Assembly: GCA_050084515.1 (NCBI GenBank)
Contig: CM114271.1
Location: 34,720,001-34,784,000, forward strand
Reading direction: 5' to 3'
From: Blasia pusilla
Taxonomy: Eukaryota
Length of the DNA stretch: 64,000 nucleotides
Part shown: piece after piece, positions 1 through 62,620 of the stretch
Numbering within the stretch: the first letter of the stretch is position 1
Layout: each line of letters starts with the position of its first letter
Translations under genes and position numbers: made by a program
Notes under the pieces: generated by a model
Told to the model about the DNA's origin: nothing
Seen by the model: only the letters and a program-made list of their open reading frames with translations
Databases searched by the model: none

Positions 1-185
1 TAGTCACTACGCTTACGATTTCAAGAGAGGATTGGAATTTGAGGGATGCTTCAACATTCCTAGAGTAGAGGGGACACCTTCTACTCAAACACCTTTCTCA
101 TTTTTGTCTTCTTGGTGGCTGCGGACTTCAGATTCTTACGAATTCAAAGTCTTTGACCCTTTTTTGTCATTTTCATCAATTCGCA

Positions 186-3100
186 ATGGTGAATACTAGT
201 ATGCTGCTCAAGATCAAGGACATCCCGAAATTCGACGGGACCTATTTCTATATCTGGCATTTTTGCATGATGTTGTTTCTAGATGCCAAAGGTTTAACAT
301 GCATTGTTGACGGCACGATTGTTAAGCCGACAACTGCCACTGCTTCTGCAACAGGAATAGGGAGTGTTCAAGAATGGGATACACTCAATAAGGTAGCCTT
401 ATCTATTATCGCGAATCGACTAGACAACTTGCAAGTCCATCATATTAGTGTTTCGAAGACGGCCGTTGAAGCTTGGTCCAAATTGGACACCTTATACCAA
501 GCGCGCGATGCCGTGACGAAAATGTACTTGCAAGATGAGCTTCAAACCCTCAAGATGAAGGAGGGAGACAGTGTTACTAAGCACGTTCACCAATTTTGCA
601 CCTTGATTGATCAACTTTCTGCCGCCCGCTCAGTAATTACAGATGAGAATCAGTATTTGGCATTGATGCGATCAATGCCCAATAGTTATCGCAATTTGCT
701 AACCTCTTTAAGAAGTCAAAAGAATCTGACTCTTCAGACGGTGATAACTTATCTTCTCTAGGAGGAGAAGATGATGAAGACGCAAACATCAGAGCCATCT
801 TTTGCACTTTTCGTTGGACGAGGCGTAGGTCCTTCCAATTATAAGCCGAAGTTTGGTGGCCACAAGCAAGGTGGCTATCCATCAAGAGGATACGATAGAG
901 GCAAGGTGCCTCAGAAAGGCGTTGGTTCTTTCATATCATGATTTGTTCATGCATTTTCAGCGAATTCATCCAAAGGAGAATCGCCAGGTAATACTGGTGA
1001 TTGGCAATCACTGTCCTCTAGTCAACAGAATAACTATCAAAGGATGAAGTGTTTTTAGTACAATCTGCTGGGAAATCATATCAAATTGCCGCAAGCGTCT
1101 TGCTGACCAGCAATTGCAATCCAAATCTCAGGTTCCCCAAGCCCATATGACTTCCCATCTGTTTGTTACAGTAGCATATTCCACTACGGGATTGGAAATC
1201 CAAGATAACATCTGGTATCTTGATACTAGAGCTACACATCACATGGCATTTTCCAGTGATTATTTTTCTAATTCTACTCCATACAAGCGGCCTGTGTATG
1301 TTTACCTTGGAGACATTTCGACTCAAGCAATTCATGGGACCGGCACGGTTGAGATTCTCCTCTCTGAAGGAACTCCACATTCTCTTTGAAATGTGCTGCA
1401 TATACCAAGCCTCAAGAAGAATTGATTTTCCGTTTAACATCTTGACGCAGTCGGAGGTTCAGCTTTGATCAGCAATGGCACATGTGTCCTATAAAATCCC
1501 AAAGGAGAATTGATAACTATTTGCTATCTTCTCAATGATTTGTATAAGTTGGGAGAAGTTGTTTACCTTCCCCATGTTCATCTTTTGTAGTCGCTAATGT
1601 AGTCCTTCCTCACTCGGATGCTTTTTGGCATTGCCATTTGGGACACATTAGTTCAACTCGTATTTCTCAACTTCAATCCCAATAGATGATGGATGGCATT
1701 CGTGATCACAATCCTTCTCACACTTCCTCTTGCACTGCTTGTCTGTATGGCAAGCAAACCCCCAAATCTTTTCCCTCTAGCATACTCGCACATAGAGCTT
1801 CTGGCATTCTTGATTTCATTCACACAAATATCTGCGGACCAATTTCTCCTCCTACTCATTCTGGGTCTGCTATTTCTTGCTATTTATTGATGATTTCTCT
1901 CGCTACATTTCACTTTATCTAATGCTGCACAAATTTGAGGGACTTCCCCGATTTGAGCGGTTTGTGGCATTAGTTGAGAATCTGCATCAACCACGTTGTG
2001 TCAAGATGCTTCGTTCTGACAATGGTGGCGAGTATCGATCCTCTGCTTTTAATGATTTTTGTATTTCGAGAGGCATTTCTAGAAAGTTTATTGTTCCTCA
2101 TACACCTCAGCAGAATGGCGTTTTTGAACAAAAGAACCGCACTCTTGTCAATTCAAGAATAACTCCTTCTTCACTAACTTTACTGACTAACTACAACTAC
2201 AAAAGAATAAAAGGATTTTCTTCCCTCTTGGAAAAGACTCTTCTCAAGCGCAGACAAAGACTCTTTCGAATCTGGAATAACAAAGCTGCAACAAAGACCT
2301 CAAGAATGGCGGCTCACCCTACTTTGAGAACTGAATCTGTCATGGCAGGTTACTCACTGTCTAACAACTTTCCTAAGCTTCTTGATTATCTTCAGAAATT
2401 TCGACATTTCAAGACTTAACTCTCATTCCTCCTATAGCCCAATAAGATTCTACACTCAACTCCGCACATAAAAAAGCATGAGAAAAGACACTTCAACTGC
2501 ATCAAAGAGTGGAACGAACTAGTACGTATTACAATCTTCAGAAAGTACAAGACTCTTTGGCTTGGATCATCCCCACAAAACTCCTTACACAATCTACCAA
2601 GACTATTGGGAAACTCAAGATATAAGGAAAAAATTCTAACCAATAGTATTGGGGAATTCAAGACACAAGGGAATGATCCCTTCTTCTTCTGAATTATGCT
2701 TTAAGTATTCTCTTTGAACAATTCTTGGCTCTGCCTATTCTACTCTAGAATTCTAATTGATAATCCTACCCTCCTTGGTTCAAATTCTCTAACCCTCCAT
2801 CTTCCTAAGGCGGTTGGTTGACCTGGAGATTCCGTTCTGCTCCCTTTTAAACCGCCGCGCCTCTTCATTTCCAGGTTCTGAAACCGCAGTGACGGTTTGG
2901 TCTTCACAGTCCTCGCGCTCTTTGCTATCCTATCTTCGTGATCCTATCTTCGCGAAGACTCTTATCCTTCTGTCGCCGTGAAGAATCCTCCTTGCGATTT
3001 CCTTTCAATCCGCTTTCTTCAAAACATTCTTTCTATTTCCTATTCTTTATACACCTTTCCGCTTTGTGAAAACTCTTTGCTTCCTCTTCCTTCTTAGAGT

Positions 3101-5470
3101 TCTTAGTCTTTGCTCTTGGGTCTTGGGTCTTTGTTCTTTGTATCCAATCTTCGCACAAAGACTACCTTTCAATCTTCTTTTGCAAAGAATCTTTTTCTAG
3201 TCTTCGTTGACAGTCTTCACCACTGTTCCTACTACGGTCTTCCTTGCGAAGTACCCGCGCCTCTTATTCTAGTTTCTTTTCCCGTCTTTTCCTACTTTTA
3301 CACCATTCTCACTCTTCCAAGATTGTCCTTAATCTCTTAGTATCTCTTGTCCTCTCATCAGATTTCTATCTATCAGTGTTTTTACACAATTTCGGTAAAG
3401 TATGCATCTTTACTTCCGATATTGAGTCATTAGTCTTCGCTCAAGCAAGACTTCTGGACAAAAAATGCTCTTTCCGTCAAAATTTCAAAAATGTGGGCAC
3501 TACAGCTTCTTATGATGCAGATGATGATCTAGCCATTCGTTCCGATTCACTTTTCTTCCGAGCTTCTCCGAATTCTTCTGGCTTGTTGCCACTTCCTTCC
3601 CCATTGCCCGTTCCATCTTTAATGGGAGTCCCAATTCACCAGGCATTTCCTCTTCAGTGGGAGTTCGCGCATCTCCATGTATTTCCTCTACCGTGGGAGG
3701 CTCTTCTTCTCCTACCTGTAAATCAACTTCTGGTGATGGGCGCCCGGATCTTTATTATGAATAGAGACCTCGGCCAAGCTCCCCTCCGCTTGCTAAACGG
3801 AGGAGTCCTCGGATTACCAAGTAGATTGAGCATTTCAACGCCCTTGCTGAAGATGAGAAAGATAAATAAAGAGCTTTTTAGAAGCGTTGGGCTCTTGTCT
3901 CTTTGACTGATTCTTTTTATGAACCTCAATCGTGTGAAGAAGCTAAGACCGGGCCGGATGCAATTCATTGGAAGTCTGTTGTTTCTGCCGAATTAGCCAA
4001 AATAGCCCGAATGCAGGCTTGGACTCTTGTGCCACTTCCTCATGATCGGAGTACTGTGGGTTATCCATGGGTTTTCAAGATTAAGCCCACATATGACGGC
4101 CGAATCCACAAATATAAAGCCCGGCTTGTTGCCAAGGGCTTCACTCAAATCTAGGATATAGACTACGAAGAGACGTTTTCTCCTACGGTGAAGTTACAAT
4201 CTCTTCGTCTTTTGATTTCTATTGCAGCTTATTTTAATCTTGACCTCCATCAGCTGGACGTCATTGCTGCTTTTCTATATGGTTTCTTGAAGCAGCAGAT
4301 TTTCATGGACCTTCCACAAGGGCTTTCAATTCCTGATCGCCACATGGTTTGTCTTCTTGGACAATCCATTTATGGGCTGAAGCAATCTACTCGAATGTGG
4401 TATGAGCGATTTCATTTTTCCCTACTTAACCTTGGCTTTGTCATCCTAACAGCAGATTCTAACATCTACATTTTGCACAAGGATTCTCAATTTCTTATTC
4501 TTGCACTCTATGTGGATGACACCATCCTGGCTAGCTCTAGCCCTGAACTTCTTACTTTTGTCAAAACTATGCTTCGCCAACAATTTGAGATGACCGACCT
4601 GGGTGAGGCGTATCACGTCTTAGGAATGCATATTCAACGCGATCATGAACATGGTTGGATAAGATTAAATCAAATGACATACCTGAAGAATAAGTTGACG
4701 CAATTTGAGATGTAGGACTGCAGGCCTATTTCTACCCCTTTTGATTTTTGTCTCCACCTTAGTAAAGACCATTCTTCTGTTGACGATGTTGAGATTGCTG
4801 CTATGTCTTTGATTTCTTATAAAAGTATTGCAAGTAGCCTTATGTGGGTGATGGTCTACACTCGCCCGGATATCGCCTTTGTTGTGAGCACCATTGCTTA
4901 GTTTATGACAAACCCATGTCCCATTCATTGGACAACAATCAAGCAAATTTTTTGCTATCTTCAGGGTTTCAATGACTATTTTCTCCAGTACCAGCGTTCG
5001 TCTGCTCCCTTTCAATTGGAAGGATATTTTGATGATGCCTACGATGACAATCTTGATTCTAGGAAGTCAACCAGTGGATTTTTCTTTCTTCTAGCCAGAG
5101 GAGCAGTTAGCTAGGCTAGTCTGAAGCAAAAATCGGTTGCTTTGTCTAGCACATAATCGGAGTACATAGCTATGACCAAAGCTAGTACTGAAGCTATCTG
5201 GTTAAAAGACTACTTTATGAAATTGGTTTTGCATAGAAAATTACTAAGATTTTTTGTGATAACGAGAGCGCTATCTCTTAAGTCAGTTCAAATAAACATC
5301 ATGATCGCACTAAACACATCGACATTCAGTATCATTTTATCAAAGACCAAGCGGCAAACTCAAGATGGTTTATGTTCCTACTGCAGATATGACTGCAAAT
5401 ATTTTTACTAAGGGTCTTTAGAAAGGCCCTCATTACAAGCATACTCGATCTCTAGGTTTATTTAGTTATG
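186..5470 (+). pseudogene. Copia gag-pol polyprotein pseudogene
   Basis: Fragmented ORFs 153-761, 1114-1389, 1877-2155, 3903-4154, 4188-4715, 4905-5114 are separated by stops and frameshifts; the integrase C-terminus is missing. Confidence 0.9.
2152..3504 (-). mobile_element. Foreign insert in the Copia integrase, probably an LTR fragment of another (Gypsy-like) element
   Basis: Copia homology stops after NRTLVN(S) at ~2152 and appears to resume at ~3505. On the minus strand the insert starts TGTAGTGCCC, typical of an LTR start. No TSD found. Confidence 0.4.
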
Positions 5471-11649: not shown

Positions 11650-12313
11650 TATTAGATTCTAGTAGATTAGCGCAACAAATCAGTCCATTAGTGTGCGCTA
11701 GTTAGTTGATCCTTGTGTTTCTCACACGGATCAACCAGGATGAACGGACTAGATTACCCTTGATTTTAGGGACAATTTCTGTCCACTAGTTTTCTTCTTA
11801 TGTCGTTTCATATTTGTAGAGTTAGAACGACGCATATATTTTTTAGCCTTCTTTCTCTATTAGTAGCGGAAAGTTTGTATCAGCATTCATTCCTTTTACG
11901 ATCAATAAATCTAGTCTGAGCATTCGAGCATTTTCTCTCTCTTGATCATTACTGATATTTTTACATGGTATGAGAGCCAAGTTGCTAGTCACTACGCTTA
12001 CAATTTCAAGAGAGGATTGGAATTTGAGGGACACTTCAACATTCCTAGAGTAGAGGGGACGCCTTCTATTGAAAGTTTTCTTGGTGGGTGCGGACTTCAG
12101 ATTCTTACGAATTCAAAGTCCTTGACCCTTTTCTGTCATTTTCATCAATTTGCAATGGTGAATACTAGTATGCTCCTTAAGATCAAGGAAATCCCAAAAT
12201 TTGACGGGACCTATTTCTATATCTGGCGTTTTTGCATGATGTTATTTCTAGACGCCAAAGATTTAGCAGGAACTCTTGACGGCACGATCATTAAGCCGAC
12301 AGCGGCCACTGCT
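11650..12313 (+). mobile_element. Copia 5' LTR (11650-11965) + PBS (11966-11977) + start of gag, truncated
   Basis: LTR matches 5504-5820. PBS TGGTATGAGAGC is one mismatch from the tRNA-iMet PBS TGGTATCAGAGC. gag start MVNTSMLLKIK. Confidence 0.92.
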
Positions 12314-13295
12314 CATAAGAAGGTGAAAAATCCATCAAGATTCCTACATTGTTGAGACAACACGTTAGAATTAGGCATTTTTTCATTCAACATACCATTT
12401 ATCCCTCATTAAAATATGTGCAATAGTGTGGGAGGAAAGGCTTGAAGTTGTGTAACTAAAATGTTTTGGGGTATGATGTCCGCTTCCTCACAAATGGATA
12501 GACATGGTGTAAGATCAAAACTGAGAGTGGAACCAAGGTTGCACACGGACAAAGTCTATGTTTGCAGATTTATGTCTGTCCCTAGGATGAATATGTTCAT
12601 GCGGTCCTAGGTTCACACGGACCCCATTCGGATCCACCCCGCTTGCAACGTAGACTCAGGCTTAGCCAGCCTCTACCCAATCCAGCGAACCATTGCTCGC
12701 CCCTTCTTTCCACCTATTCTGTAGCCCACTATAAGCCATCGCTAGGCCTACATCAAGATTGCCTGGCCTGCACTGACACAAAGGGTTCAAAATTATCCCG
12801 CACAGGTAGCCTACACGCATGGGCTTGATGGAATCTTCTTGAATCCGAGCATGCATGTGTTTTGAGCTCCTGCACAGTGGTCCTTGCGGGCCTTATTTAA
12901 GCCGACCGTGGACCAAGAAGGCTCGATATAGGCCACGTACGGGCTTGATGCGGGTCTAGCAAGGGCTCATAGCCTTTATACATGTTCAATACCTACCCCT
13001 GCCCGTTCACACATCCCAAGCCCGTGCGCGTGATCAGCCTACCAGAAAGACCAGGACGAGGGATCCGTTGGGCATGTCCCTCCCATGGATTGACAAGTCG
13101 ATTTCTGTGCAACCTTGAGTGGAATCCTTGGATGATAGAGGTCGCATCACCAAGTTGAAATGGCGGAGGTAGTTGGAGACAATGGACTCCCATTGCTATC
13201 ATAAAGGGAAAATTTGGGTCCAAAGAAGATTTGTAAAGCAGGCCAAATCTTGGACAAAAAAGGTCCAAGAGATTTTGCAAGCAACTAAGCTCCCC
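12314..13295 (+). mobile_element. LINE 3' RT-region fragment, interrupted by a hAT MITE
   Basis: Matches 60906-61325 on both sides of the MITE. Confidence 0.8.
12534..13117. mobile_element. Non-autonomous hAT-type MITE
   Basis: TIR CAAGGTTGCACA...TGTGCAACCTTG; 8-bp TSD AGTGGAAC (12526-12533)/AGTGGAAT (13118-13125); the LINE is contiguous across the insertion. Confidence 0.88.
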
Positions 13296-14232
13296 ACAAT
13301 GACTACTCTAGTCTGAATGATATCAATGGTGATGAAAAAATATTGGAAACTCAATACTGAAGCTTGGACGTTGGTGTTGAAGGATAGAGCAACTAGCACT
13401 AGAATCATGACAATGGTACCAAAAAAAAAAAGCGGCAGCAAATATGGAATGGTGATTAGTAGCAAATTTCCAATGGTCATATATAGTAATAGCAACGATG
13501 GCGGATGGCAAGAGATTGACTGTTGGCTGAAGCCCTGATGACTTAGTGATGCTCTAATAGGTTGACGGTTGAGGGAATAAAAATATGATGATGGGCATCA
13601 TGACCTGTTGATGGCCATATTGACGGGAGGCTATTGCGAGCTTCCTGTGGTTTGAAGAGAGCTTCCGTTGGGTTGAAGAGAGGAAGTTTTTTTTGTTAAC
13701 ATTTTTGCAATTTTGTTCCTTATGCTTAGTCACTCTCACAGATTGGTTTTTTCTCTTCCACATTCCGGCAACCCGTCTAAATCCGACGGGTTGCAAGTTG
13801 CACAAAATAAATAAAACTGAAAAAATCATTGGAATCACAAATGTGGAACAAATCACTTTTTCTATCCAAGGTCTAAAAAAAAATCATTATTTTTCCATAG
13901 CTGATTAGAGTTCAAGCTCATAGTGAACATTTTGGCACTTCAAAGTACAATCAAAGATCTCATTTTGCATCCTCAAAGTGGTTTGTTTAGGACCTTCGCA
14001 CTTCTTTGAGGGATAAAATTGGTTGGTGGATTCCTACTCCTATCTCTAACTCTCTTAAAACTACAAGCAACACATAGTACATGAGCTTACAAGGGAAATA
14101 CCTTTTCCCACTTGTCTCTCTTTAGACAAAGTCATCACATGAACATGTGGGAAAGCAACAGATGTGTACCACATACATCCTTGTCACACTTGAATTCACA
14201 GTGTTGTTCTTGACCCAATACATCCTTCCTAT

Positions 14233-17200
14233 TCAATTGCCACTATGAACATCTTTTATGGCGATGATTTCCATGTTTGCCTTTCGAGCTGATGCGATTC
14301 GCTTTGCTCTCTCCACCGTTGGCCTACACATTCTGTTTCTCTTCACCTCATTTCTAGACTCAAACAGAAATAGTGGATTGAGATCATCCACCTTCTCCGG
14401 GTACATGTTGACATCAATCTTGGGTTGAATCCGAAATGCGAAGGTCTCTTTAATGCAAACATGGTCTGAACTCCCTCCATCTAAGAGTCTGAAACTGGCA
14501 CTCGTAAAATTGTCCACTTCCTCTAGAGTGCAATTGGTATCTGCAACAATGGGCCAAATCGTGGGGGTATTCCGTGGAACTCCAATGGCAGCCAGATAAG
14601 ACTTTCGGAAAGCGGATGATTCATTTGGGCAGAAGAAGTACTTCAATTGATCCTCGATTCTAGTAAAATGATCAAAGGTTTTCAGCCTCCATAAGCCTGG
14701 GAGTGGTCGTCTTGTCCTTGTATAGTTCTTATTTAGGAAAGTGCCACATGCTCTCCTAATGCCATCTGATCTTGCCCTGCAAGTGGGGCCACATCTAGGG
14801 TTGCTTCGAGAAATATGCCATCGCTTGAGGTTGCAATCAACCTCAACAACCAGAATCCCATACTGTTGAACTACCCTCGAGATTGTATATTGGGAAGTTC
14901 GAGTAACACACGGATTTTGAAATAAAACATCCACTGATTTTGCAGAAGGTACTTCAACCCAAATTTGGGGGAAGTCTGGTGTCTCCAAATACCCGAGCAG
15001 GGTAATTTCATCATCCAAATCAATCACCGGATTCTTTCCTCGATATTGACGCTTAATTTTCTTGAAGTCAATATACTTATCAGGTCTCCAAGAGTCTCGT
15101 TCAGACTGCTCTACTACCCTCTGTATGGGACGTCTCGAAATACGCCCACAAATTTCCCCACCAATATGGACGTCTTTCTCGAGAGGAGTTCCAACTACAC
15201 ACCGATTGAAGGCTTCCACAGACAATTTTCATCCCCAGATCTCACAACGGCTCCAACATAGAGCTTGTAAATCGAAGGGCCCTTTCCCTTGGTTATGCCT
15301 TTTGTAAGGAAGATGTGGGATGTTGCACATTGTAGCATTGCTCTTGCCTGGTCTTATTGGCATGCCTCAACGAGAGATATTTTTTTGACATGTTTGTGAT
15401 GATCTCTAAGAGGAATTGACACTCTTGGCTCCACTTGTGTTGGGGCAGAGGGCATTCTCGTGAATGTTTAGTCCCTCCACAAGAAAATTTGTCAATTGAT
15501 GGAGAGAAAGCCTAAGTGTTCAATGCTTCAAGAAGCATTGAAGCATTCAAGAAGCATTCAATTGAAAACAACCAACCTGTCAATAAGATGTATGAACAGA
15601 ACTTGGACACAACGGGTTGCCAACAACTACCAACCCGGGAGTGGTTCCGACGCGTTGCAGCATGTAATTTGCAAGACAAGCAGCAAACCATCAGATTTCG
15701 ACAGGTTGCAAGTAGAACATTTTTGAAAAAAGCCGCTTGCAACCCGTCAAATAGCAATGCAACTCGTCACAAGATAAAAAAATTCAGAAAAAATTTGACA
15801 CGAGTCAGATTCTGACGAGTTGCAAGATGAAAGTTTTTCACACAAAAGTTACTTGCAACCCGTAGGATTCTGACGGGTTGCAAGATGAACTTTTTTCGCA
15901 AAAAAGTAACTTGCAACCCGTCACATTCTGACGGGTTGCAAGCCATTGAATTTGGATAGGTCGCACTGTGATGTAACATATCGGTTCCAACAAGTTGCTT
16001 TACCTACCTATTTTGCAACCCGTACGATTCTGACGAGTTGCAATGTCACACTTGGACTACATACTTGGAAAAAATGGGGAAAACTCACGTGCTGCATAAA
16101 GTTTCCCCATTGCCCATTCGAACGGTCCACCAACTGAGCCACGAACACAACTCTTTGTATTTCCCCTCAATCGTATGCTTTCTCCACCACACTTGAAGCT
16201 CTTCTTGGCACTTCATGGCTTGTTTCAAGGTTTTGCTATCCTTGCAGCGTTGAAGTACAGCTACATGCTCTGTTCTCTTAGTCTCCTTGATGTAGAATTT
16301 TGTGTAGCGAGTCACAGATTGTTTCCAATGGAAAGCATCCGATATTCCCCTTTCTGGTTGAAAGACGATTTTGCTGATAGCAATCCATCCGGAAAATATC
16401 AAAGCTAACCCAGCTCCCAAATAGATCTTCTCCCTCCCTCATTCTGTCAAAAAGATCCAGGCCGCTAGACAACCCTGTAGTAGACATTTTGAAGACATAA
16501 GCTCTAGATCCCTCGCCTCCTTGGCCCATGAAATACCATCTCTGAATGAATGGAAATCGTGAGTTGGCCTTGATCTTGGCAATGGCATCCATCTCGTGGT
16601 TTTTCCGTCAAGTATTCGTATTTGATGCAATAAGTTCCTGAAGCTTTCAAGATCAGCCAAGAATGCCAAATTTTCCCATAGTTGTTTCTTCTGAGCTGCC
16701 ATGATCTCCCCTTGGCCACGAATACCTAGTAGTTGTTCACAAATATGTGATGGAGTTGTCAATTTGATCACTTTGGGCTTTGATCTCGGAGAATTTTTGT
16801 ATATCTCAGCCACTTTCTTTGCCATATCCTCCTTGATGTGTCTCTGAATTGCACCCGTGACAGGATGAGTGTGACACCCAACATGAATTGCTTGCCTTGT
16901 GTACTCGGACGTAGAACTGTAGTCGTGCACTATGAAAAACATATAAGTCGGACACGTTGTAACATAGAAAGGGAAGGCTTGATAATGCAAACATCGATGG
17001 CCACCGGACGGTATAGTCGTACCCACGGCGTAAGGAGTTTCAGCATTTTTTGGGGGAAATTGTGACGTATTCACGACTCCGTTCCTCTCGAGGAAGGGGC
17101 ATCTTGGACTTCTGCACTCTAAAGCTCCAACGCATTGGTGACGAGACACAATCCAAGGACCACTTGGGATTGAAGCACTCGTTCGCTGCAGTCTACACCA

Positions 17201-17320
17201 TCGGTGATACTCCAATTTTTGGTGCATACCCTTCAAGCAACCTCCATCTTTCTTTTGAGCAAGACCGACAAGTGGAGGCAGCTCAAAAATGCAGCTTCCA
17301 TCATACGTTGCTAGCAACTC
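14233..17320 (-). pseudogene. GCM-like zinc-finger, Mutator-like transposase pseudogene (putative intron ~15512-16088)
   Basis: ORF 16439-17413 has W..C(VGALE)C..PRC..C..CP..HVGCHTHP (GCM/WRKY-type Zn finger). Then VFKMS..GLDLFDRM..WVSFD (candidate first catalytic D), SDAFHW (degenerate CxxH) and WLSWW. The C-terminal ORF 14233-15225 has WHISR..C..C..FFC..IWP. The DDE core appears internally deleted. Confidence 0.65.
15600..16045. repeat. Cluster of ~8 degenerate 29-bp palindromes in the transposase intron
   Basis: e.g. TTGCAACCCGTAGGATTCTGACGGGTTGCA (15853) and TTGCAACCCGTCACATTCTGACGGGTTGCA (15911). Confidence 0.9.
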
Positions 17321-18429
17321 ATCCAGAGATGAGGTAGCAAGAAAGGTTGGAAAATCTAGCTCCGAAGAAGCTCGCAAAGCAAGAGGAGAAGCGGGAAGAA
17401 AAATGGCTCGCAAAGGCGCAGAAGGCCGAGAAGAAATGCATGGAGGCGGAGATTAAGCAGAAGAAGATGCAAGACGCCGCCTTCCGGAAAGCCAAATTGG
17501 CAAAAGCCAGGAAGGAAAATGCAGTCGCTATAGAAGAAGAACCCTCCCAGCAACCCATCGAGAGTGTGGAAATGGAGGATGTGTCATCTATGAGGTGAGT
17601 GGGAAAATGCAAGAGACCAACACCGACGAGCTTCCAGAGATAAACAAGGAAGCTGTTAGAACCCCGAGTGTTGAGATCATGGAGATCTCGGAAGGAGAAG
17701 GAGAAGAGTCTTCTACATCTTAGAACCCTGTTGAAGAATTTGACTTGTTTGCAATTGAAGAGTTTCAAGTGGACTTGCCGGATGAGGCTCCAGAACAGCT
17801 CGCTGGACTTGACACCGACCCCATTTTTGAGCGGGTAAGCATTGTTCTACATTTCTCTTTGCATTGCATTGCTTCCAGTCCTTATGAAAACTGGAATTAA
17901 TAGTGGTGACATTCACGCAGGTGGTGAAGCATATGGCACAGGTGGATGGTCCGAACACCCCGAGGATTCCTCTCTGCCTATTCCGAACGATGGAATACGT
18001 TCGAGAAATCCAATCCGAGGGAGACATTGACAAGTTGAAGTTGTTTGTGGCAACAGCTTCACATGTGGATAGCTTCCCACCTTTCTATGTTCAACCTTAT
18101 GATGAGCATGGAACCCAGGCTTTGGTAACTGAGGAAGACCTAGAGAGTCTGGATGCTTTCTAGAGGCTGAGGGATGTGGAGTTCTGGAAGGCAGTGGCAA
18201 GAACCCAGTACAAGTGGATGCAAAACTTGTACTTCTTCATCTAGGATGGCAACCACCGATTCATGGCATGGTCGAGGTTTGCAGCGGAGCGACCAAACTC
18301 CCTTGAGGCTCATTTCTGTGTGAGGGCGGTGGTTCTCCATCCCTACCCGAATCATATGGCCACCGTGGAGATGGCCATGCACTCCATTATCACGTAAGTA
18401 TCCTGAAACTTTTCTCCCAAATATGAACC

Positions 18430-19090
18430 CGTTTCAACCTGTTGGACTCGGACGGGTTGGTTCTTAGCAGCAATCGTTAAAGATAGCAACAACCCGTCAG
18501 AAGGCGACGCATTGCAATAGGAAGAACTCCTTGCCATATTTGCAATCCATCGGACTCCGACGGATTGCATTTGGCAATCTATTGAGTTGCTTGGCAACCC
18601 GTCGGAATCGGACGGATTGCATTTGGCAATCTATTGAGTTGTCTGGCAACCCGTCGGAGTCCGACGGGTTGCACAAACTCGAGTGTTGCTATCCCAATAG
18701 GACTGGCCTTGCAACCCGTCGGACTCTAACGGGTTGGAAGAGCAGGGATGTCTTGCAACCTGTTGGAATCCGACGGATTGCAAGAGAAAAAACTTACCTC
18801 TAAATCCTCAACCCCGATGCAAATATAATACCCGGTGTGGGTGGCTTTGCAACTCGTCGGTTTCCGACGCATTGAATTTACGAATGTAGTGGATGGTGGT
18901 GCAACCCGTCGGACTCCGACGGGTTGCAACCCAACTCCTTCGACAAGACGCAACCCGGATGCAACTTGTCGGTTTCCAACGGAGTGCACTGAGAAAGCTT
19001 GTGGAGCAACCCCTCGGACTTTGACGGGTTGCAAGCAGTTGTCATTTTGTTTGTCTATTTCAAACCCGTAAAAAACCAACGGGTTGCTAT
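18430..19090. repeat. Cluster of ~12 29-bp palindromes in a ParB-gene intron
   Basis: Perfect copy TGCAACCCGTCGGACTCCGACGGGTTGCA at 18900-18928; others mostly every ~45-65 bp. Confidence 0.93.
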
Positions 19091-21154
19091 TAGTAAATGT
19101 TCTTACTTCTCATTGTTGTTTGCAGCATTGTGTCGGAAGGGAATATTACCCATCACTGGATCCAAAAATACGCCTGAGTGAGGAAGGTTCTTACAACGCA
19201 CCCATCGCAATACAAAGGATTCCTTGGAGAGGATCCGAGTTGGTGGATGAGATGCTCGCAAAAGGAGCACAAATCAAAAAGAAGACTTGGGCCAACACAT
19301 TCATTTCCCAAGATGCAACTATTACAATTCTCTACAGGTCAAAAATCCAGGCAGCAAAAAGAAGCGTGACACTGGAGCTGGAGTGGAGAGGGAATGTTTC
19401 AGCTTCTGAGAGAGCGAAGTTCATTCAGGCTGTGGTGTCGTCGGCGACCACGTACCTTGCAAAAAAGATGCAACGGTACATCGCCATCCTCAACCCCAAG
19501 CTCGGGCCCGAATTTTACACAAAGTTGAAGGCCATAATCAAGCGGTAGCAAAAGAGGGACGAGGATCCATACGGACGAATTATAGTGAAGGTGTCTTTGG
19601 ATCGAGTTCGCCCTCTCGGGGATTTCAGAATTCAAGCAGATCCGACTGATGAAGATCAATCTATAGGGAATGGAGGAAGAGAAAAAATTGGCACACCATG
19701 GGTGGTGTCCGACCCACTCATTTCCCAGTGGCTGCGAGAATGGTCCATTTAGGATGCCTTGCACTTGCTAGGAAAGGCAATGATTGAGTGCCTTCAAGCC
19801 GACTTGTAGAGAATTCAGCCAGTTCCGGAGGAGGCTAGCCTCGAATCGGCAGAGGAGTACGAGTTGTGGTTGAATGACATCCGGGATAAGCCAACAAAGA
19901 ACCCCGGGTTCAAGAAGATGATCAAGAGCCTAATTATGCCGCAGGGGGATGTCGACGAGGAGATTGGCGACCCGAAGAAATGGAACTTTGCCAAAAAGAA
20001 GAAGGAGCTTCAAGATCAAGCTACCAATTCATCCCGCCATTGAGCTGAGCAGAGGATGGTGTTCATATTCTTGACTTCCTCTATGAATGCAGGAACATGG
20101 AGGAAGTTCTCAACGGTGCTCAAGCTATGGGCAGATACTCCAGATGGCAAAGGATTGTCCATGTATGATGTGGAGATGGCACTCGACATGAGCCCTTGGG
20201 AAGTGCTAAACTGTTCAATCTGGTTGGACTTCAATGACCCTGATGAGCTCACTGATCTAGCAAAGCGAGACTTGTATAATGCGCTAGCTGCTAGCGAGGA
20301 GGACATCCCAAAAATTTTCAAGATGGAGGAGTACTTCGAAGGGGATGGCGAGGCACAAGCGATTGAGGCGGCTGAGATTTTGTCAAAAATTGTAAGAGTA
20401 AAAGACAAGTCCATTGTGGGGTTGAAATCCAAGGTGAAGGGCCCCAAACCATCCAAGGTAAGATCATCTAGGCAAGAAGGGCGGCAACGAGAGGCCCCGA
20501 AAGAGAATCCTATGGATTCTGAGGTCACGGTGACCCCAAAAAGCAAGCACCCCACTCGCGAGAAGTGAAAGAGGGAGACACCCGATTCCTCCGAGGGGGG
20601 GAACAAGAATGTAGTCTTTACTCCTTCATTGTTGGGGAAGCACACGGACAGAGCATCAAAAATCACCATCTTGCTGCATCAAACATCATTGTTGGAAGAA
20701 CTGGAGAGGTTCTCCACACAAGAGTCCACGTCTTCCCTGGAGAAGCTGACACTCTTGGGATGAAAGCTTTCACGAAACGGCCATGCCCTGTGGACTGTCA
20801 ATGGGGTACATGAGGAGGTTGCAATTGACCTCCTCATCGCAGATCTACCATCGAGGCTTAGATTGTGGGCAGAGAACCCATGCGACCCAATTCCGGATTG
20901 GAACATTCCCTTCACATATGACCAGATCGCCTTGATGTTCTCCTTTGCCAACGCGTATCTGAGTGACACGGGATATTTCCTTGTTCTCACCGATGGCAGC
21001 GAGGATGAGCTCTTCAACTTGCAGTGCGTCAAGCAATCGTTGAAGTGGCAAATAGTGTTGTATTGGGTTGTGAAGAACGAAAACCCGCTGAGGTCAGCTA
21101 CAAATCAACTCTTGGTAAGTCTGAAAAACTTATGCAACTTTTTTCTTTTTTTCT

Positions 21155-21425
21155 TGCAACCCGTCCAACTGCGACAGGTTGCTCAACACACATCAGAACT
21201 AGAGTGGTGATGCAACCTGTCGGACTCTCACGGGTTGCACATTGACCCTTACACGGACTGTGCAACATGTCCGACTCCGATGGGTTGCACATGGACCCTC
21301 CCATGGCCTGTGCAACCCGTCGAAACCCGACGGGTTGCACATCCACAGTTTGTGAGCAACTTGTCGGAATCCGACGGGTTGCATCGCCCCCAACTTTGCA
21401 ACCCCAGATTCCGTTGGTGACATCT
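21155..21425. repeat. Cluster of ~6 29-bp palindromes in the intron after the MTase-like exon
   Basis: Copies at ~21155, 21211, 21261, 21311, 21356 and 21398 (~50-bp period). Confidence 0.9.
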
Positions 21426-22194
21426 GACATTTCCAACCCGTCGAGTTGCTCTTGGAAGACCTTTTCCTTGATTCTTAGCTGATTTTTATGGTGAGAATGA
21501 GTGGCGGAAACATTCTCTGCCTTGAGTCTCGGAACAACTTGTTTGCACTTTTCCAGGAGGCAAAGTCATAGTACAATAGGTTGATGGGCGTTTACCAAAT
21601 GCCTGCACGGATCAATGAACCTGCATTGGAGCCACTGGTTGTGACGCCATCCTCACTACTAGTGATCCCAAAACTCGGAAGGGCAAGCCCACCGGTGATT
21701 CTAGAGGAGTTGTCGGATGATGACAAGTGATTGTAGGTGCATTGGATTTCAAGCATTTTGGAGTTGATATGTGTTGGTTCTTGGGGAGGAGCAAATATTG
21801 ATATCAATGGGTTTCCCTTTGTAGAAGCTTCAAAATCACCTATCCGGGCAGCGTTGGTACTTTTCTCGGGCCACAGGGGACCGATACGGGGTTCCTAGGG
21901 GAACAAGGCTCTCACATCCTCCTTCCTTCTCAATTCCAATCTACAATTGTGTAGAGGAGCCACTGACTAGCCCTAAGAAGTCACTTGTAGAGGCATCGGC
22001 AAGAGTTAGAAATATTTTTGTAGATGACGAGGTTGAAGAGATCATAGACTAGATTTTCTTCTTCAGGAAATCAAATGTAAATAACCGATTGGCATAAATA
22101 CAATCGATGTTTTGCACCCAATTCTCTTCACGCTTATAGTCTGATGTTATTTTTGTTAACACATTCCAAAATTGGGGTGAGGCTTTTCTGCTGT

Positions 22195-22605
22195 TGCAAT
22201 CCCTCGGAAACCGACGGGTTGCCTGAAAGGGTCTTTGAACTGCAATCTCTTTTCACATTTACATTTTGCCTGAAAATATCTTCACTACAATGTCTTTTCA
22301 CTGTACCAAGACCAATTTGTTTCCTTCTATTCTTTTGGTGTGGTGTGCGTGCTCTCCTGGACTCTAATATTCGGTTGGAGTGGTTGGTAACCCGTTTGAT
22401 TCCGAAGGGTTGAGAACCACTCCAACTGATGGAAAATGTCAGTTTTTGCAGATGGTCTAGTCTTGCAACCCGTTGGAGTCCAACGGGTTGCAAGATCACC
22501 TAAACCAGGGACAATACAGTCTTGCAACCCGTCGGAATCCGATGGGCTGCAAGATATCCAAATGCAGACAATCCTTGCAACCTGTCGAATTCCGACGCGT
22601 TGCAT
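22195..22605. repeat. Cluster of ~5 palindromes downstream of the ParB/MTase-like gene
   Basis: Includes the perfect 17+1+17 palindrome TCTTGCAACCCGTTGGA-G-TCCAACGGGTTGCAAGA at 22461-22495. Confidence 0.9.
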
Positions 22606-25184
22606 GTCTAAATAAATGGACCTGGTTGCTTAGCAGTCTCCCTCTTCACTCTTGACAGCTACCAACCTCTTGCTTCCATTGTCCTCTTAGTCCTTCCATG
22701 CAGGTTTTTTTCTCGATGCATATATTTCCTTGTGGCTTAGAGAATGGTGAAACCAAGTTGTCAAACGCCCAGCAATCTCCTATGGACTCCATGCACCCAT
22801 GCAAGAGCCAACATATGTAACTAAATCGTGGCCTCTGAGTTTTCTAGAATATCCAATTTTTTGGAATATCCAGGGCTGTCATGAAAACCATCGGCTACGC
22901 TCAATGGTCAGAGTTTACTGTGAGCCGATTTCAAGTGTTCTATTGTGGAAAATCCCATTTGATGGATCAGTATTGATCGGATGGGATTTTTCATATCTTG
23001 ATGCATCAAGAGCCCTCCTACCCAACACGGTGAGGGTGGGAGTCCTACATCGATGGTCCATAAGTAAAACCCTCAAGGACACTATAGTCTATTGACATAA
23101 TAGTCAATCTTTATTAGCACCTATTATTGTTCTGAAATTGTTTGTACTAATAAAATTATTCCTAGATAGTCCTCCAACAATATTACCCCCTTTGGGTGGC
23201 TTACTCTATAGTCGGCTTAGACTAGTAATGTGAAAAAAATTTGGCTCACATAGAGAATGCTGGAAGCATGTTTGAAGTGGTCTTCTTATGTCTACTTGTT
23301 TTTCCAAGCCTGGAAAAAACAAGGTTAGTTTATGCCCCAATCTAGTCCACTTGCTACTCTCTTCTAAAGTTTTTTTGCATTTGAAAGCAAAAAAAAAATA
23401 CAGAAATGTCAAAAAGTTTTGAAGAGAGGAGGCAGATTCTGCTTTTTTTTTAAAGAGAGACTCTCCTCTCTTCCTCTCCTCTCTTACTCTCTCATGCCAG
23501 AATACCAGCTCCCAACGAAGCAACTAGGTCGGAGCTACAGGTAAGGAGGACAGTGTCGACTGAAGGGTGTTGGTTAATAGCAACCGCATGATTGCATTAG
23601 AGAGCAAGACAAATTTGATGAGATCCTAGTGGATGTTGTGATCAACATCTAGGCTTCATTTTCTATGGTAACTTGTTGTAACAGGTAGGCATGACCCAAA
23701 CGAACTTCAATCCACTTCACATTTTTTGTTAACTTGGAAAGATAATCTGCAAGTGCCAGACAGGTAGAAAAAGTAGAGTGTCTACTTGCACATCATTTTG
23801 ACACCCGTCCAATTTTGTGTCATTCCCCCACTAGTCTTATTCTAATGTAAGTCGGGCAAGAGCTGCACAGGGGCCATTTGGAAGGCGTTGCGGCTCAGGA
23901 AAGGCACCCGAGGTTTATGAGACTCTGTCAATTCTTGATGAATGATTTCAGTGAGGTGTATAGTCTACGGGCCGCTCCAACAACGGCCATTACGAGGCGA
24001 TATGTACAAATACGGTGAATGCACCTCCGTCGGCAAATATTAAGTACGAGCGGTAGGCATGGGATGGATTTTTTCACTATGTGGGAGGGATGGTTATGGA
24101 TGTGGTAAGGTGATACATGTGGTCCAGTTTGGTATCCACTACTTTTGGTGGAACAGAAGAGGCGGCTATGGAACTGACGGGCCCTGATGAGGGAAGGCTA
24201 GTTGGGAGAGGGGAGATGATGAGTCTTATCATGTACTGGAACGAAGAGTTCAACTTGTTCTTTGTTTTGATCTTACCATGGCTCCTATAGTGAAGTATTT
24301 TTTATTTTTATTCTATTTTCTAGATCTCTGATCTTATTAGGGTTCTCATGTAGGTATTAAGGTTTCACAAATAGCGATGTAGTGGATCTCCTCATGTAAC
24401 TTCCTTTCTTCATCCAAATCACCCCCCTCCCCCTTCTACATTCACCTTTATTTTTCATCTTTATTTTTTGCTCACCCTTGATTCATGGTTGTCTCCATTG
24501 CTATACCCTTAGCTAAACCCTTATTTCCATCCATTTTGATCTAGATTTGTCTATTCACTTCCAACATTCTTAGTATCTTCATGAAGCCACTAGTTATGTT
24601 TGGACAAGCGGTTTGGGTTTAGAAGTCTTAAGTAATGAAGGTAGATGAGAGTTTATTCTAGGGAGATCAATTTGAATAGTGGGAATTATCTCTTGAGTTT
24701 GATGGAGGGGGTCATATTCTCTTGTTGGTGAATTATATCCATGCCTCGACCCTCACCAATCCCCGGTATGGGGACCCATGGGTCGTCTAGTTGGGATACG
24801 AAATGCACTTTTTTTCGAATACGAAATAGGTTTAGGGTCAAGTTGATGACCTACGCGCATAGGTCACCAAAGGAAGCTGAGGGTATACCTCAAGTAGAAT
24901 CAGTTTGAAGAACCCATGTTCAATAGCCTATATTCCTTTCATAAAAATGAAAGTGAGAACCCCAATCAACTACGGCAGATAATATTGTAAAAGGCTTTCT
25001 TGTTCATACTTAGAAGTTCGGAATAAAAATATCTATAATCAATATTAATATTATATAAAATGGTATCTATGTACTAATTTTTTTTCCTCTCATTTATGCT
25101 TGCATTTTTTTACTCATTTTTCTTATGTTATTTTATCTTGTTCATTGCTCACTTAGTCCATGCGTATGTTTTATTCTTACGTGC

Positions 25185-46500: not shown

Positions 46501-46704
46501 AAAAAATGGAAACTAAGTCTTATACAACTTATCTATCATGATCCATATGGGAATGATACATATTTTATGTTTTAAATAATAATCATCTTTATTGGATACA
46601 ATAAGGGAAGTGAAGACATTTTCAACTTACTTATTCTGAATATAAAAAAATTGAAGTCCAACCATCACCTGCAAAAAAAACCAAATACCCAATAGCAATT
46701 AGCA

Positions 46705-47967
46705 ATGAAAGGAAAGGGAAGGAAGCAAGATTGGAGATTTCTAAGCAATAATAAATATTGCAATCGTATAAAATTGAAAAGATTAAGTATTTTGTTATCG
46801 ACTACGATAATATTATCGATGATTTCTATTGGATTAAGTTATCTATTTCTTGGAATGCATGCAAAGAGTATATTGCTTCTTTTGAGTGACTATTTGCGCC
46901 CATGGGGATTTGATCTCCTCTCTCATGCTTCCATGGAGAATACGGAATGTAGCAAAATATCTTCAATTGATTATTCGTTCAATGACTCAGAAACTCTTGT
47001 AACATATGCGGCAACAGATCCAGATGAGTTCAAATTTGGTATTGATTTTGGAAAGTTAATGGATGACAATCCAAACCATATGACAAGTTCATTTAGTGCC
47101 CTACTCCGAAATCCTAGATTTTCTGCATTTAAATCAAAATTTCATCAAATATTGATAAATTGGGCAAAGCAAAAGCAATATCAATCTCAAGTGATGCAAG
47201 AACTCTTAGAGATGGTGAAGAAACCCATGGATAAATATTATGAAGCATTGAACCATTCAAATATTGAACTTGGAGGACGGTACAAAACATGTGCAGTGGT
47301 GGGTAATAGTGGTATAATCATAAATTCATCTTATGGTGATTTTATCGATAGTCATGATATGGTTATTCGTCTTAATAATGCAAAGGTGTCACAATTGAGC
47401 TTCAAAAAATTTTTGGGATCCAAAACAACATTAATGTTCATGAATAGCCATATTTTACATCAATGTGCAATGCAAGTAGAATGCTTATGTCATCCTTATG
47501 GTGTACAAGTGCCTATCATGTTATATCTCTGCAACCTAGAGCATGCACTTGACGTTGCACTTTGTGGAAGTAAGCATAAGGCTCCATTATTTATCACAGA
47601 TGCTCGTTTCAACATGTTAGTTGCACGTATTAGCAGATGGTATTCCTTAAACCGATTCTTTGAGAATACAAAAGGGGCAACACTTGATCAATGGGAGAAT
47701 GTTCATAAGCATGAGTTCCATTACTCTTCAGGAATGCAAGCTGTCATGCTTTCCCTTTCTATTTGTGACAAGGTCAATATATTTGGATTTGGAAAAAATA
47801 CAAAATCAAAACACCATTTCCACACAACACAGAAATTTGAGCATTATGCTCATGATTATGAGGCTGAGTACTTATTCTATAATGATCTTCAAGCAAGACG
47901 AATTGCATGGAACCCCTTCTTATGCAGCATGGGCATTAAAATTCCACCATTAGAAGTATTCCTTTAG
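46705..47967 (+). CDS. GALT29A: GT29 sialyltransferase-like protein / beta-1,6-galactosyltransferase GALT29A-like (type II Golgi membrane protein)
   Basis: Intact 420-aa single-exon ORF with an N-terminal TM. Sialylmotif L CAVVGNSG..IDSHDMVIRLNNA, motif S YSSGMQAVMLSLSICDKVNIFGFG, motif III HHF, VS HDYEAE. Confidence 0.93.
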   Translation: MKGKGRKQDWRFLSNNKYCNRIKLKRLSILLSTTIILSMISIGLSYLFLGMHAKSILLLLSDYLRPWGFDLLSHASMENTECSKISSIDYSFNDSETLVTYAATDPDEFKFGIDFGKLMDDNPNHMTSSFSALLRNPRFSAFKSKFHQILINWAKQKQYQSQVMQELLEMVKKPMDKYYEALNHSNIELGGRYKTCAVVGNSGIIINSSYGDFIDSHDMVIRLNNAKVSQLSFKKFLGSKTTLMFMNSHILHQCAMQVECLCHPYGVQVPIMLYLCNLEHALDVALCGSKHKAPLFITDARFNMLVARISRWYSLNRFFENTKGATLDQWENVHKHEFHYSSGMQAVMLSLSICDKVNIFGFGKNTKSKHHFHTTQKFEHYAHDYEAEYLFYNDLQARRIAWNPFLCSMGIKIPPLEVFL

Positions 47968-56828: not shown

Positions 56829-57871
56829 TCCTAAAGAGTTGATGGGGAAAACTTGAACCCAAAGAAGATCCGTAAGGCAGGCCAAATCTTGGAGGAAAAA
56901 GGTTCAAGAAGTTGTGCAATCAACCAAGCTCCCAGCACGGCATGAAGTGAGGTAGTAAGATGAGATAGCATTTGTGGATACCATAACCAAAGCAATGGGC
57001 AAATGCTCACAGTAGAATAACATGGAGAGGCAGAACTCAAGAACTATTCGGGGGAAACCCCTTAGCTTGCTTGGAAACCCGGCTAAAGTTCAAGTTTAGG
57101 ACGGGGCCAATCCCCTTGAACCATAAGAAAAGGAGGATGGAAATACAACTGAATTTTTTCGCCTTATGTGACGATGGGGATGAAACCTATAGTCATTACT
57201 TGGTCTCCTACGCAAAATTCACAACACAAAGAGCAAGAACTTATGCTGATATTGCTAAGTTGGTAACATCAGAATTGTTCAACATATTTAGTAGCCTTGA
57301 TTCATTGTCCAAAGTTGTTGCATTGGTAAGTAATGTCTATTGGGGATCCCAATTAGGTAAAGTAGATGGTGTGTGTGGTGAAGAGTTTCTTGGTTGAAAC
57401 TTGGAAGCTTTGTAGGAAGATGTTGTTTGGTCAACACTCACACTATATGAGAGTGTCTCCCTCGTCTCATATGGTACCTTCTTCACTTCTTCCTCTCTCT
57501 ACACCCAACCCAATCTTAAGCACCGTCCAACCAGGGTACGGGGTCTATGGTCGCAAGGCTATGACATGCACTATTTAATGAGTACAGTCTCCCTCTCTCA
57601 ATTCATTGCCCAAAGTTTTTGCACAAGTAAGTAATGTCTATTGGGGATCCCAATCAGGTATAGTAGATGATGTGTTGAAGAGTTCCTTGGTTGGCTCCGC
57701 ACGAACACGTACGTTGTGTGGTCAGCTTTCACACTATATCAGAGTGTCTCTCTCCTCTCATATGGTACCTTCTTCACTTGCTTTTCTCTCTACACCCATC
57801 CCAGTCTCAAGCACCGTCCAATCGAGGCGCGGCGTCTATGGTTGCAAGGCTACGACAGACATTACTTAATG

Positions 57872-57955
<84 letters not shown>
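56450..57955 (+). mobile_element. Stack of 5'-truncated LINE 3' ends, each ending ..CACTACTTAATGAGTAC + (CT)n
   Basis: Units at ~56450-56825, 56830-57600 and 57600-57955 all match the 3' end of the LINE at 61220-62000. Confidence 0.85.
57876..57954 (+). repeat. (CT)n microsatellite
   Basis: Pure CT run of ~79 bp. Confidence 0.98.

Positions 57956-62620
<4,665 letters not shown>

Follow-up and report, generated by a model that had tools for sequence, protein, structure and literature searches.

Palindrome arrays in the introns of a Mutator-like transposon of Blasia pusilla as candidate sites for its ParB-methylase-like accessory protein

In the liverwort Blasia pusilla, a 29-bp palindrome is repeated many times in the introns and flanks of two adjacent, decayed genes and is absent from their exons, which raises the question of what such a site is for and what might read it. 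The sequence analysed (64,000 nucleotides of contig CM114271.1, positions 34,720,001 to 34,784,000 of assembly GCA_050084515.1, hereafter the window) had been described earlier from its letters and open reading frames, and the palindromes had been taken for selected protein-binding sites or hairpins. In the following we identify the element that carries the arrays and its two genes, describe how the site has been kept and how the arrays grow, and weigh what may bind there.

The arrays, their transposon and its two genes

When the 64-kb window was scanned for the consensus TGCAACCCGTCGGA-N-TCCGACGGGTTGCA (29 bp, at most nine mismatches), 29 palindromes were found, all confined to positions 13767-22604, while the same scan of 50 Markov-shuffled windows found a mean of 0.02 matches and at most one. 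The matches form five clusters (Table 1) that lie where the original prediction had placed them, and none is in an exon; the rule also holds in one full copy of the element (12.8 kb), which has 43 palindromes and none in its roughly 7.4 kb of exon. That the repeat is conserved while the spacers differ was likewise confirmed, since palindromes in the window average 0.74 identity against 0.39 for spacers, and shuffled spacers reach 0.37 (19 spacers of the window, none longer than 50 bp).

The host of the arrays is a broken copy of a high-copy, approximately 12-kb, non-TIR Mutator-like transposon with two divergent genes. The window copy is dead, as its left end is missing and it carries deletions, stops and frameshifts. 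Relative to two near copies it lacks 1.1-1.8 kb at 17325, and with this stretch it lost an additional array that full copies have between the two genes. The family was surveyed in the window's own genome (390 Mb, 26 contigs), where a first look with the two ends gave 1724 and 1838 candidates and one with stretches of genes A and B gave 2247 and 4077, respectively; none of these figures is a copy number. Pairs of termini were recognised in 7 of 20 copies fetched, six of them spanning 12.2-12.8 kb. Target duplications of 9-10 bp flank six of the seven pairs, one with a mismatch, and the seventh has none; as the target site duplication of the MULE superfamily is given as 8-11 bp (PMC6446971), these lengths place the family with Mutator/MULE elements. 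Long TIRs are absent; the outermost 120 bp, examined in one copy, have a GA-rich subterminal stretch of 30 bp as their only inverted match, and the family thus fits the non-TIR kind of MULE. Full copies were found to have two genes only, and none of ten copies checked has every exon open.

Table 1. Positions of the transposon copy, its predicted genes and its palindromes in the window
Feature	Positions	Strand	Remarks
Broken non-TIR Mutator-like transposon copy	13640-23513	.	Left terminus missing, right ends 23513; internal deletion 17325/17326
Lone palindrome 3' of transposase gene	13767-13795	.	Same place in full copies
Gene A last exon	13996-15511	-	C-terminal part with SWIM-type finger end; stops and frameshifts
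Gene A intron	15512-16088	-	Five full palindromes (15682-16042) and several half-sites; counterpart RNA-spliced
Gene A first-exon remnant	16089-17326	-	Zinc finger and DDE core; 5' end deleted
Gene B exon 1 remnant	17326-17834	+	Low-complexity N-terminus
Gene B ParB/Sulfiredoxin-fold exon	17921-18393	+	DGNHR motif; two stops in window copy
Accessory-gene (gene B) intron with 12-palindrome array	18394-19125	+	GT..AG; counterpart RNA-spliced
12-palindrome array	18433-19088	.	Consensus scan
Gene B long exon	19126-21114	+	Helical region, linker, first methylase-like half; DLPS at motif IV; stops and frameshifts
Third array-bearing intron	21115-21488	+	Five palindromes (21155-21383); acceptor deleted
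Gene B last-exon remnant	21500-21730	+	C-terminal part of N6_N4_Mtase-like domain; first 103 codons deleted
Downstream array	22195-22604	.	Five palindromes
Right terminus	23450-23513	+	CT-rich subterminal stretch, inverted match of GA-rich left-end stretch of full copies

Other features of the window include decayed pieces of a copia-type LTR retrotransposon (69-4715 and 11915-12355, the second with a weak Pfam gag match), LINE-like reverse-transcriptase ORFs seen by eye in the translation (59300-61337), a 291-bp tandem duplication in two copies of 80% identity flanked by long CT microsatellites (57300-57890), and an intact ORF of 423 aa (46696-47967, plus strand) which, by its motifs, is presumably a sialyltransferase-like host gene.

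Gene A is predicted to encode a MULE-type transposase. Its look-alikes in the Atlas carry PF10551 (MULE) with scores of 0.92-0.94, and its alignment has two invariant aspartates, a C/DxxH motif and zinc-finger residues common to five homologs. We take the C/DxxH motif to be the MULE transposase signature. A CxC..CxH finger on the C-terminal side of the alignment presumably corresponds to the SWIM pattern, although the Pfam SWIM score is weak (E=2.5 in homolog P0172); the third catalytic residue was not located. The transposase ORFs of the window copy and of young copies had no direct Pfam match, and a word-indexed protein search with the transposase tail returned zero matches.

In the predicted protein of gene B, the accessory gene, a helical region lies between a ParB/Sulfiredoxin-fold domain and a DNA-methylase-like domain of the N4/N6 beta class. 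A full protein search with the ParB exon found 149 homologs, and the 20 that were looked up came from Riccia sorocarpa (11), Adiantum nelumboides (4) and entries with no organism given (5). The DGNHR motif is present in 33 of 36 ParB-exon matches, and presumably stands where ParB has its arginine patch. A Riccia protein of 1207 aa has matches to the long exon, at E=1e-26, as well as to the last, at E=3e-15, which fixes the architecture of the gene; a word-indexed search with the long exon returned zero matches despite the existence of a 23%-identical homolog.

A model of a Riccia homolog, about 36% identical to the window-family protein in the ParB domain, has a pLDDT mostly above 90 across the N-terminal domain. 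Compared with 48,161 chains it matched KorB (Z 7.7, rmsd 2.7, 96 residues aligned), PadC (Z 7.0), Pnob8 ParB (Z 5.9) and sulfiredoxin (Z 5.8), so that the top three are ParB-family proteins, and a whole ParB chain including the DNA-binding domain aligned over residues 27-390 with Z 8.7 (rmsd 6.0, 194 aligned, with large insertions). These Z scores are middling. A Foldseek search of the model against PDB and viral libraries gave none at E<=0.001, with ParB-family rows among the weak ones, a profile search of PDB sequences gave a single chance-level match, and the ParB-like domain has weak DndB and DUF1015 matches. The element's own long exon, modelled from eight near-identical copies, gave a pLDDT of 30 and no fold.

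The last exon of gene B matches PF01555 (N6_N4_Mtase) with E=7.5e-5 and 23.2 bits, and a Riccia homolog does so with 26.2 bits, both under the Pfam cut-off of 26.7; the last exon also matches M.RsrI (E=0.0098). Pfam matches to the gene B protein beyond the ParB and methylase-like domains were not found. Active beta-class enzymes have the catalytic motif [DNSH]PP[YFW] (PMC4738411). At this place, motif IV, gene B has DLPS in 43, DMPS in 3 and another form in 4 of 50 matches, some copies being counted twice, while the homologs read DLPT, DMPS or DMPT in Riccia and DVPF in Adiantum, where the fern keeps the aromatic residue. By sequence, the catalytic motif of the methylase-like domain is degenerate.

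Splicing was followed on a younger copy of the element (L151), to which we mapped two raw RNA runs, chosen by species label, and two contig sets; most reads are 85-95% alike to this copy and so come from other copies or from a relative. Nine reads span the intron of gene A (CT..AC on the plus strand) and four span the counterpart of the intron with 12 palindromes (GT..AG; flagged 'between: not known'), and both junctions were placed in the window, at 15512-16088 and 18394-19125, through their flanking sequence. First mates lie mainly on the plus strand over gene A and on the minus strand over gene B, as is expected for divergent transcription of the two genes. Two of the three introns originally predicted are thus supported by RNA junctions, whereas the third, which ends at about 21488, has no RNA joint listed in the L151 mapping; under a strict pattern a GT donor is present in three of six copies and an AG acceptor in three of six, and in the window a deletion of about 300 bp at approximately 21488 removed the acceptor together with the start of the last exon. 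A fourth intron, the first of the accessory gene, was read from the sequence (86 bp, 17835-17920) and contains no palindromes. Many of the ParB-exon homologs (P0001-P0149) stop at query residue 158, the position of the 18394-19125 intron, and an old age for this intron position is suggested.

Conservation of the site and its relatives elsewhere

The genome contains 522 perfect copies of the 27-bp palindrome and a control sequence none, and the first 15 loci with perfect sites that were examined all lie inside copies of the family. The best 30 genome loci by similarity to an outgroup ParB protein all belong to the window family, and at least three palindromes stand within 1.1 kb 3' of the ParB exon in 28 of them, with none inside the exon in any. 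The inner distance is 11 bp in 797 sites and 10 or 12 bp in 48 (48 sites being counted at 1 bp in this tally), and the central base is random. The centre also reads GANTC, which we take to be the target of some beta-class methylases; since the centre differs in homologous sites, we attach little importance to this.

Between the window and the young lineages the 27-bp core is identical. None of 11 spacers of the window intron matches young copies, and 9 of the 11 match three near copies. Gene B was under purifying selection over the same divergence, its methylase-like part included: pS is 0.81-0.88 in the window compared with a young lineage, and pN is 0.12-0.16 for the ParB exon and the first half of the methylase-like domain, or 0.12-0.27 when three parts of the gene are taken. 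Synonymous divergence between the window and young copies is saturated in gene B and only 0.4-0.8 in the transposase; these sequences carry a hint that the accessory gene was exchanged between lineages.

In seven young copies CG sites change four to five times faster than A/T sites, and CG decay is equal in palindromes (0.045) and exons (0.047). Inserted copies were therefore methylated throughout, with no lasting protection visible and no lasting hypomethylation of their sites seen. For each site to retain its four CGs, selection must have acted in active lineages. Selection on the palindrome is further supported by a core that is identical despite saturated synonymous sites, by the fixed inner distance and by a related core in other organisms. 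Of the two readings offered originally, selected protein-binding sites or hairpins, hairpins are the less favoured.

The spacing of the sites is looser than the period of about 50 bp first described. Successive gaps in the 12-palindrome array are 55, 53, 52, 52, 65, 44, 94, 52, 60, 45 and 55 bp, so that 6 of 11 are in the range 50-55, and over 91 spacer lineages the gaps run from 35 to 78 bp with 21% in that range. These values rule out a fixed period of five helical turns, which had been proposed as a means of phasing bound dimers. A weak helical bias does remain, with gaps favouring multiples near 10.25-10.5 bp (R=0.235 at 10.5, p~0.006, or 0.04 after the scan of periods, among lineages that are not fully independent), and 22 gaps from the window alone had no such bias (p=0.65). 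A CRISPR array was considered and rejected, as spacers are 15-65 bp long, 9 of 11 are inherited by near copies and many are duplicated; Rfam gave no match, and none of the element's ORFs resembles a cas gene.

In metagenome contigs, 80 loci with a homologous ParB-like gene were found. One of them (L188) has another palindrome, CAAC-N14-GTTG, at an exact 51-bp period 3' of the ParB exon and in a looser cluster 5' of it, and two (L227 and L211) have a 58-bp palindrome every ~115 bp plus a divergently oriented transposase gene of the clade of gene A. A common core, YTCGG-N2-CCGAR or its deaminated forms, was matched 125 times against 26 in shuffled sequence (maximum 38), in 40 loci picked as non-redundant from the 80, from which the pattern itself was derived and 14 of which have no match. 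The window-family site reads GTCGG-ANT-CCGAC, which is the same 4-bp half-site set one base wider. In the window's own genome a second family with a 2-bp-centre site was sought, and no tandem exact match was found. The palindrome arms in the other organisms reach ~30 bp, and their sequences sort by protein clade on a tree of 22 of the 40 loci, mostly chosen for having sites; since kin share such labels, this sorting shows inheritance and not co-evolution.

Three further features were seen in these loci. AT-rich tandem arrays of 15 bp lie in or beside homologous elements (L188:15436-15922; L186:8094-9552), and 5' of the ParB exon the palindromes with the core occur in alternation with long palindromes of another type (L227:6514-6935; L188:8122-9003). 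A decayed convergent reading frame (L188:17600-20250, minus strand), possibly another transposase or accessory gene, is common to L188, L186, L195 and L200.

Candidate readers of the palindrome

A symmetric site of fixed geometry that is kept in sequence, is confined to the element and travels with a ParB-type gene makes the ParB-type protein the candidate binder, and the identification of the ParB-methylase gene gives the sites a likely one. With a probability of roughly 0.6, we regard the palindromes as sites of the parS type at which the ParB-methylase protein encoded by the element would bind and regulate the element's own chromatin. A dimer of the accessory protein would bind the palindromes as cis-acting sites, its ParB-like part reading the TCGG..CCGA half-sites via the helical region as ParB does on parS. 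The bound protein may spread along the element and would set its chromatin state; the arrays would be absent from exons because coding sequence cannot absorb them, and unit duplication would multiply the sites and raise their occupancy. The outcome would most likely resemble that of VANC, with active copies shielded from host cytosine methylation or freed of it, and KorB-like self-repression would be the alternative. Its degenerate catalytic motif makes the methylase-like domain most likely a binding module or an altered enzyme. Several observations count against this reading: the fold scores are middling and come from a model of a homolog, the methylase match is under the cut-off and its motif IV degenerate, and inserted copies have no lasting protection. 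Moreover, the arms and the excess of compensatory changes exceed the needs of a simple dimer footprint, the core common to other species spans just 4 bp in each half, at another inner distance, and was counted in the loci from which it was derived, and the element also encodes a transposase that has a zinc finger of its own.

A bolder form of the proposal seems doubtful to us. In it, a functioning ParB/parS-like system of prokaryotic origin would reside in transposons of spore-bearing land plants, with a nucleotide-gated clamp that loads at the intronic arrays and slides over 12 kb, a methylase-like domain that marks the element or shields it from silencing, and TCGG..CCGA kept across liverwort-, fern- and other plant-type families. 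If true, it would explain a family with thousands of copies.

The element's transposase might instead bind the sites, either to activate itself or for synapsis, given that long TIRs are lacking. The N-terminal part of gene A includes a zinc-finger region and its own intron holds one of the arrays, its transposase clade is paired with such arrays in L211 and L227, and the transposase of AtMu1 binds the elements to which it belongs and lowers their methylation (10.64898/2026.08.24.746577). The AtMu1 binding, however, is located at the TIRs in the available account (10.64898/2026.08.24.746577), whereas the arrays here are internal and the termini bear a different, GA-rich inverted stretch. The arrays also cluster around the ParB gene, and a transposase was matched in only 5 of 41 metagenome loci of at least 6 kb, a weak point given that these loci are decayed and short; none was recognised in elements of the L188/L195/L200 type. 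We consider binding by the transposase unlikely.

Nor do we think it probable that the palindromes act as structure, whether as RNA hairpins feeding small-RNA pathways or as DNA cruciforms. Folding of the 12-palindrome intron gives z=-13.6 and long stems that join different units, yet good folding is expected of any palindrome array. Compensatory changes are in excess among 56 unit families (8 vs 2.5 expected) and the arms in other organisms are long and family-specific. Template switching can yield compensatory changes without selection. Several further points weigh against a structural role: the centre has a fixed length and a random base, primary sequence is kept between lineages beyond what symmetry requires, one array lies between the genes, the arrays have no Rfam family, and in the transcribed sense G:U against A:C has no steady bias over the three introns (50:79, 106:72 and 26:35).

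Tandem duplication has shaped the arrays. Siblings within the same array were found for 118 of 308 spacers in 13 copies, and the counterparts of the 12-palindrome intron hold 8-15 units in 11 copies; judged from these sequences, arrays grow by unit duplication while the site is kept. To set selected sites against tandem expansion, as the original prediction did, was therefore a false choice, and the window has three pairs of sibling spacers (15825/15883, 18570/18622 and 21240/21290) where one duplication had been noticed. A wholly neutral account, in which a slippage-prone palindrome expands in tandem and is tolerated in non-coding DNA, would explain the sibling spacers and the variable unit number and requires only coding selection for the absence from exons. 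It is nevertheless quite improbable, as the CG-rich core is unchanged over a saturated synonymous divergence at which spacers are unrecognisable, five separate arrays have the same core, related cores flank homologous genes distant on the tree, and the short first intron of gene B is without palindromes.

Recruitment of a host transcription factor is very unlikely: the outer CAAC/GTTG is the best-kept part of the palindrome (0.87-0.98) and presumably resembles plant MYB sites, but all 15 perfect-site loci examined lie in the element, and in homologous families the outer arms change while the inner core stays.

Comparison with known systems

Green-algal cases of ParB-methylase proteins are reportedly covered by Iyer et al. 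(2011). In the brown alga Ectocarpus, the Sola element Sola1-1_Ec32 carries an accessory gene for a ParB-methylase of 1104 aa opposite its transposase, and similar proteins have been noted in green and red algae (PMC12477816). The likeness to Blasia lies in an accessory gene of about 1100-1200 aa on the opposite strand, with ParB-like and N4mC/N6mA methylase domains, whose protein was likewise proposed to bind and modify its own element (PMC12477816). It is a likeness by description; the accessible text of the Ectocarpus account names no site or array (PMC12477816), and the carriers differ, a Sola transposase in a brown alga against a land-plant-type MULE with a degenerate catalytic motif in the accessory protein.

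Closer in layout is the Plavaka element of Bostrychia, with its genes PAG2 and PAG3, where a ParB gene stands beside inverted-repeat arrays, a PF01555 gene is present and the idea of self-binding is stated (10.1101/2025.02.11.637652); PAG homologs are reported in Mutators of Chondrus (10.1101/2025.02.11.637652). Both families combine a ParB-like domain and a methylase or methylase-like domain of the PF01555 kind on a DNA transposon that dominates its genome, with tandem inverted-repeat arrays adjoining the ParB gene, PAG3 in Bostrychia (10.1101/2025.02.11.637652). Bostrychia, however, has two genes (a methylase-SET and a ParB-2OG oxygenase) on an EnSpm element (10.1101/2025.02.11.637652), whereas the Blasia family has one fused gene and arrays within spliced introns of both of its genes.

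Among plant Mutator elements the nearest parallel is VANDAL, also a non-TIR MULE with an accessory gene and tandem motifs in non-coding regions (PMC5735166, PMC10398659, PMC6446971), where tandem duplication has multiplied the VANC motifs within introns, between genes and in the terminal non-coding stretches (PMC5735166). VANC motifs are 8-9 bp and family-specific, and the main text of the paper that describes them does not use the term palindrome (PMC5735166), while the Blasia site is a palindrome of 29 bp whose core is conserved, and the accessory protein is of predicted ParB fold. With its ParB and methylase-like domains and no other Pfam match, the gene B protein is unlikely to be a homolog of VANC; anti-silencing has been demonstrated for VANC and is for the Blasia protein an analogy.

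In bacteria, a helix-turn-helix domain lets ParB recognise short inverted repeats, and ParB/parS, Noc/NBS and KorB share with the Blasia element an N-terminal ParB/Srx fold followed by a helical region, and repeated inverted-repeat sites (PMC10786196). The Blasia sites are longer and far more numerous per element, the protein has a methylase-like tail, and no ParA-like gene is among the two genes found in full copies. With the beta-class N4C/N6A methylases (M.RsrI, DpnA and Marchantia DN4MT1) gene B shares the PF01555 match and an order in which the motif IV position precedes motif I. Marchantia DN4MT1 is a host gene and has TSPPY (10.1101/2021.02.12.428880), where gene B of Blasia has DLPS and not [DNSH]PP[YFW].

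The ParB-methylase protein class and the idea that it binds its own element are thus known from algae, and in the accessible algal accounts self-binding stands as a conjecture for which neither a site is defined nor a test given. A land-plant report of such an element or site was not found in the literature searched, which was mostly open-access papers. In Blasia the proposed kind of system stands in a new host group, the land plants, and on a MULE, its arrays lie in introns and its site is defined; together with the selection evidence, the related sites elsewhere and the spliced gene models, the candidate site of the Blasia family opens the way to a simple binding experiment. If the proposal is true, the ParB-methylase class would extend to land plants, with a bacterial partition-type module working in the nucleus and a possible sequence-specific tool for steering plant chromatin, and plant Mutator elements would have, besides VANC, a second and independently built system of self-recognition.
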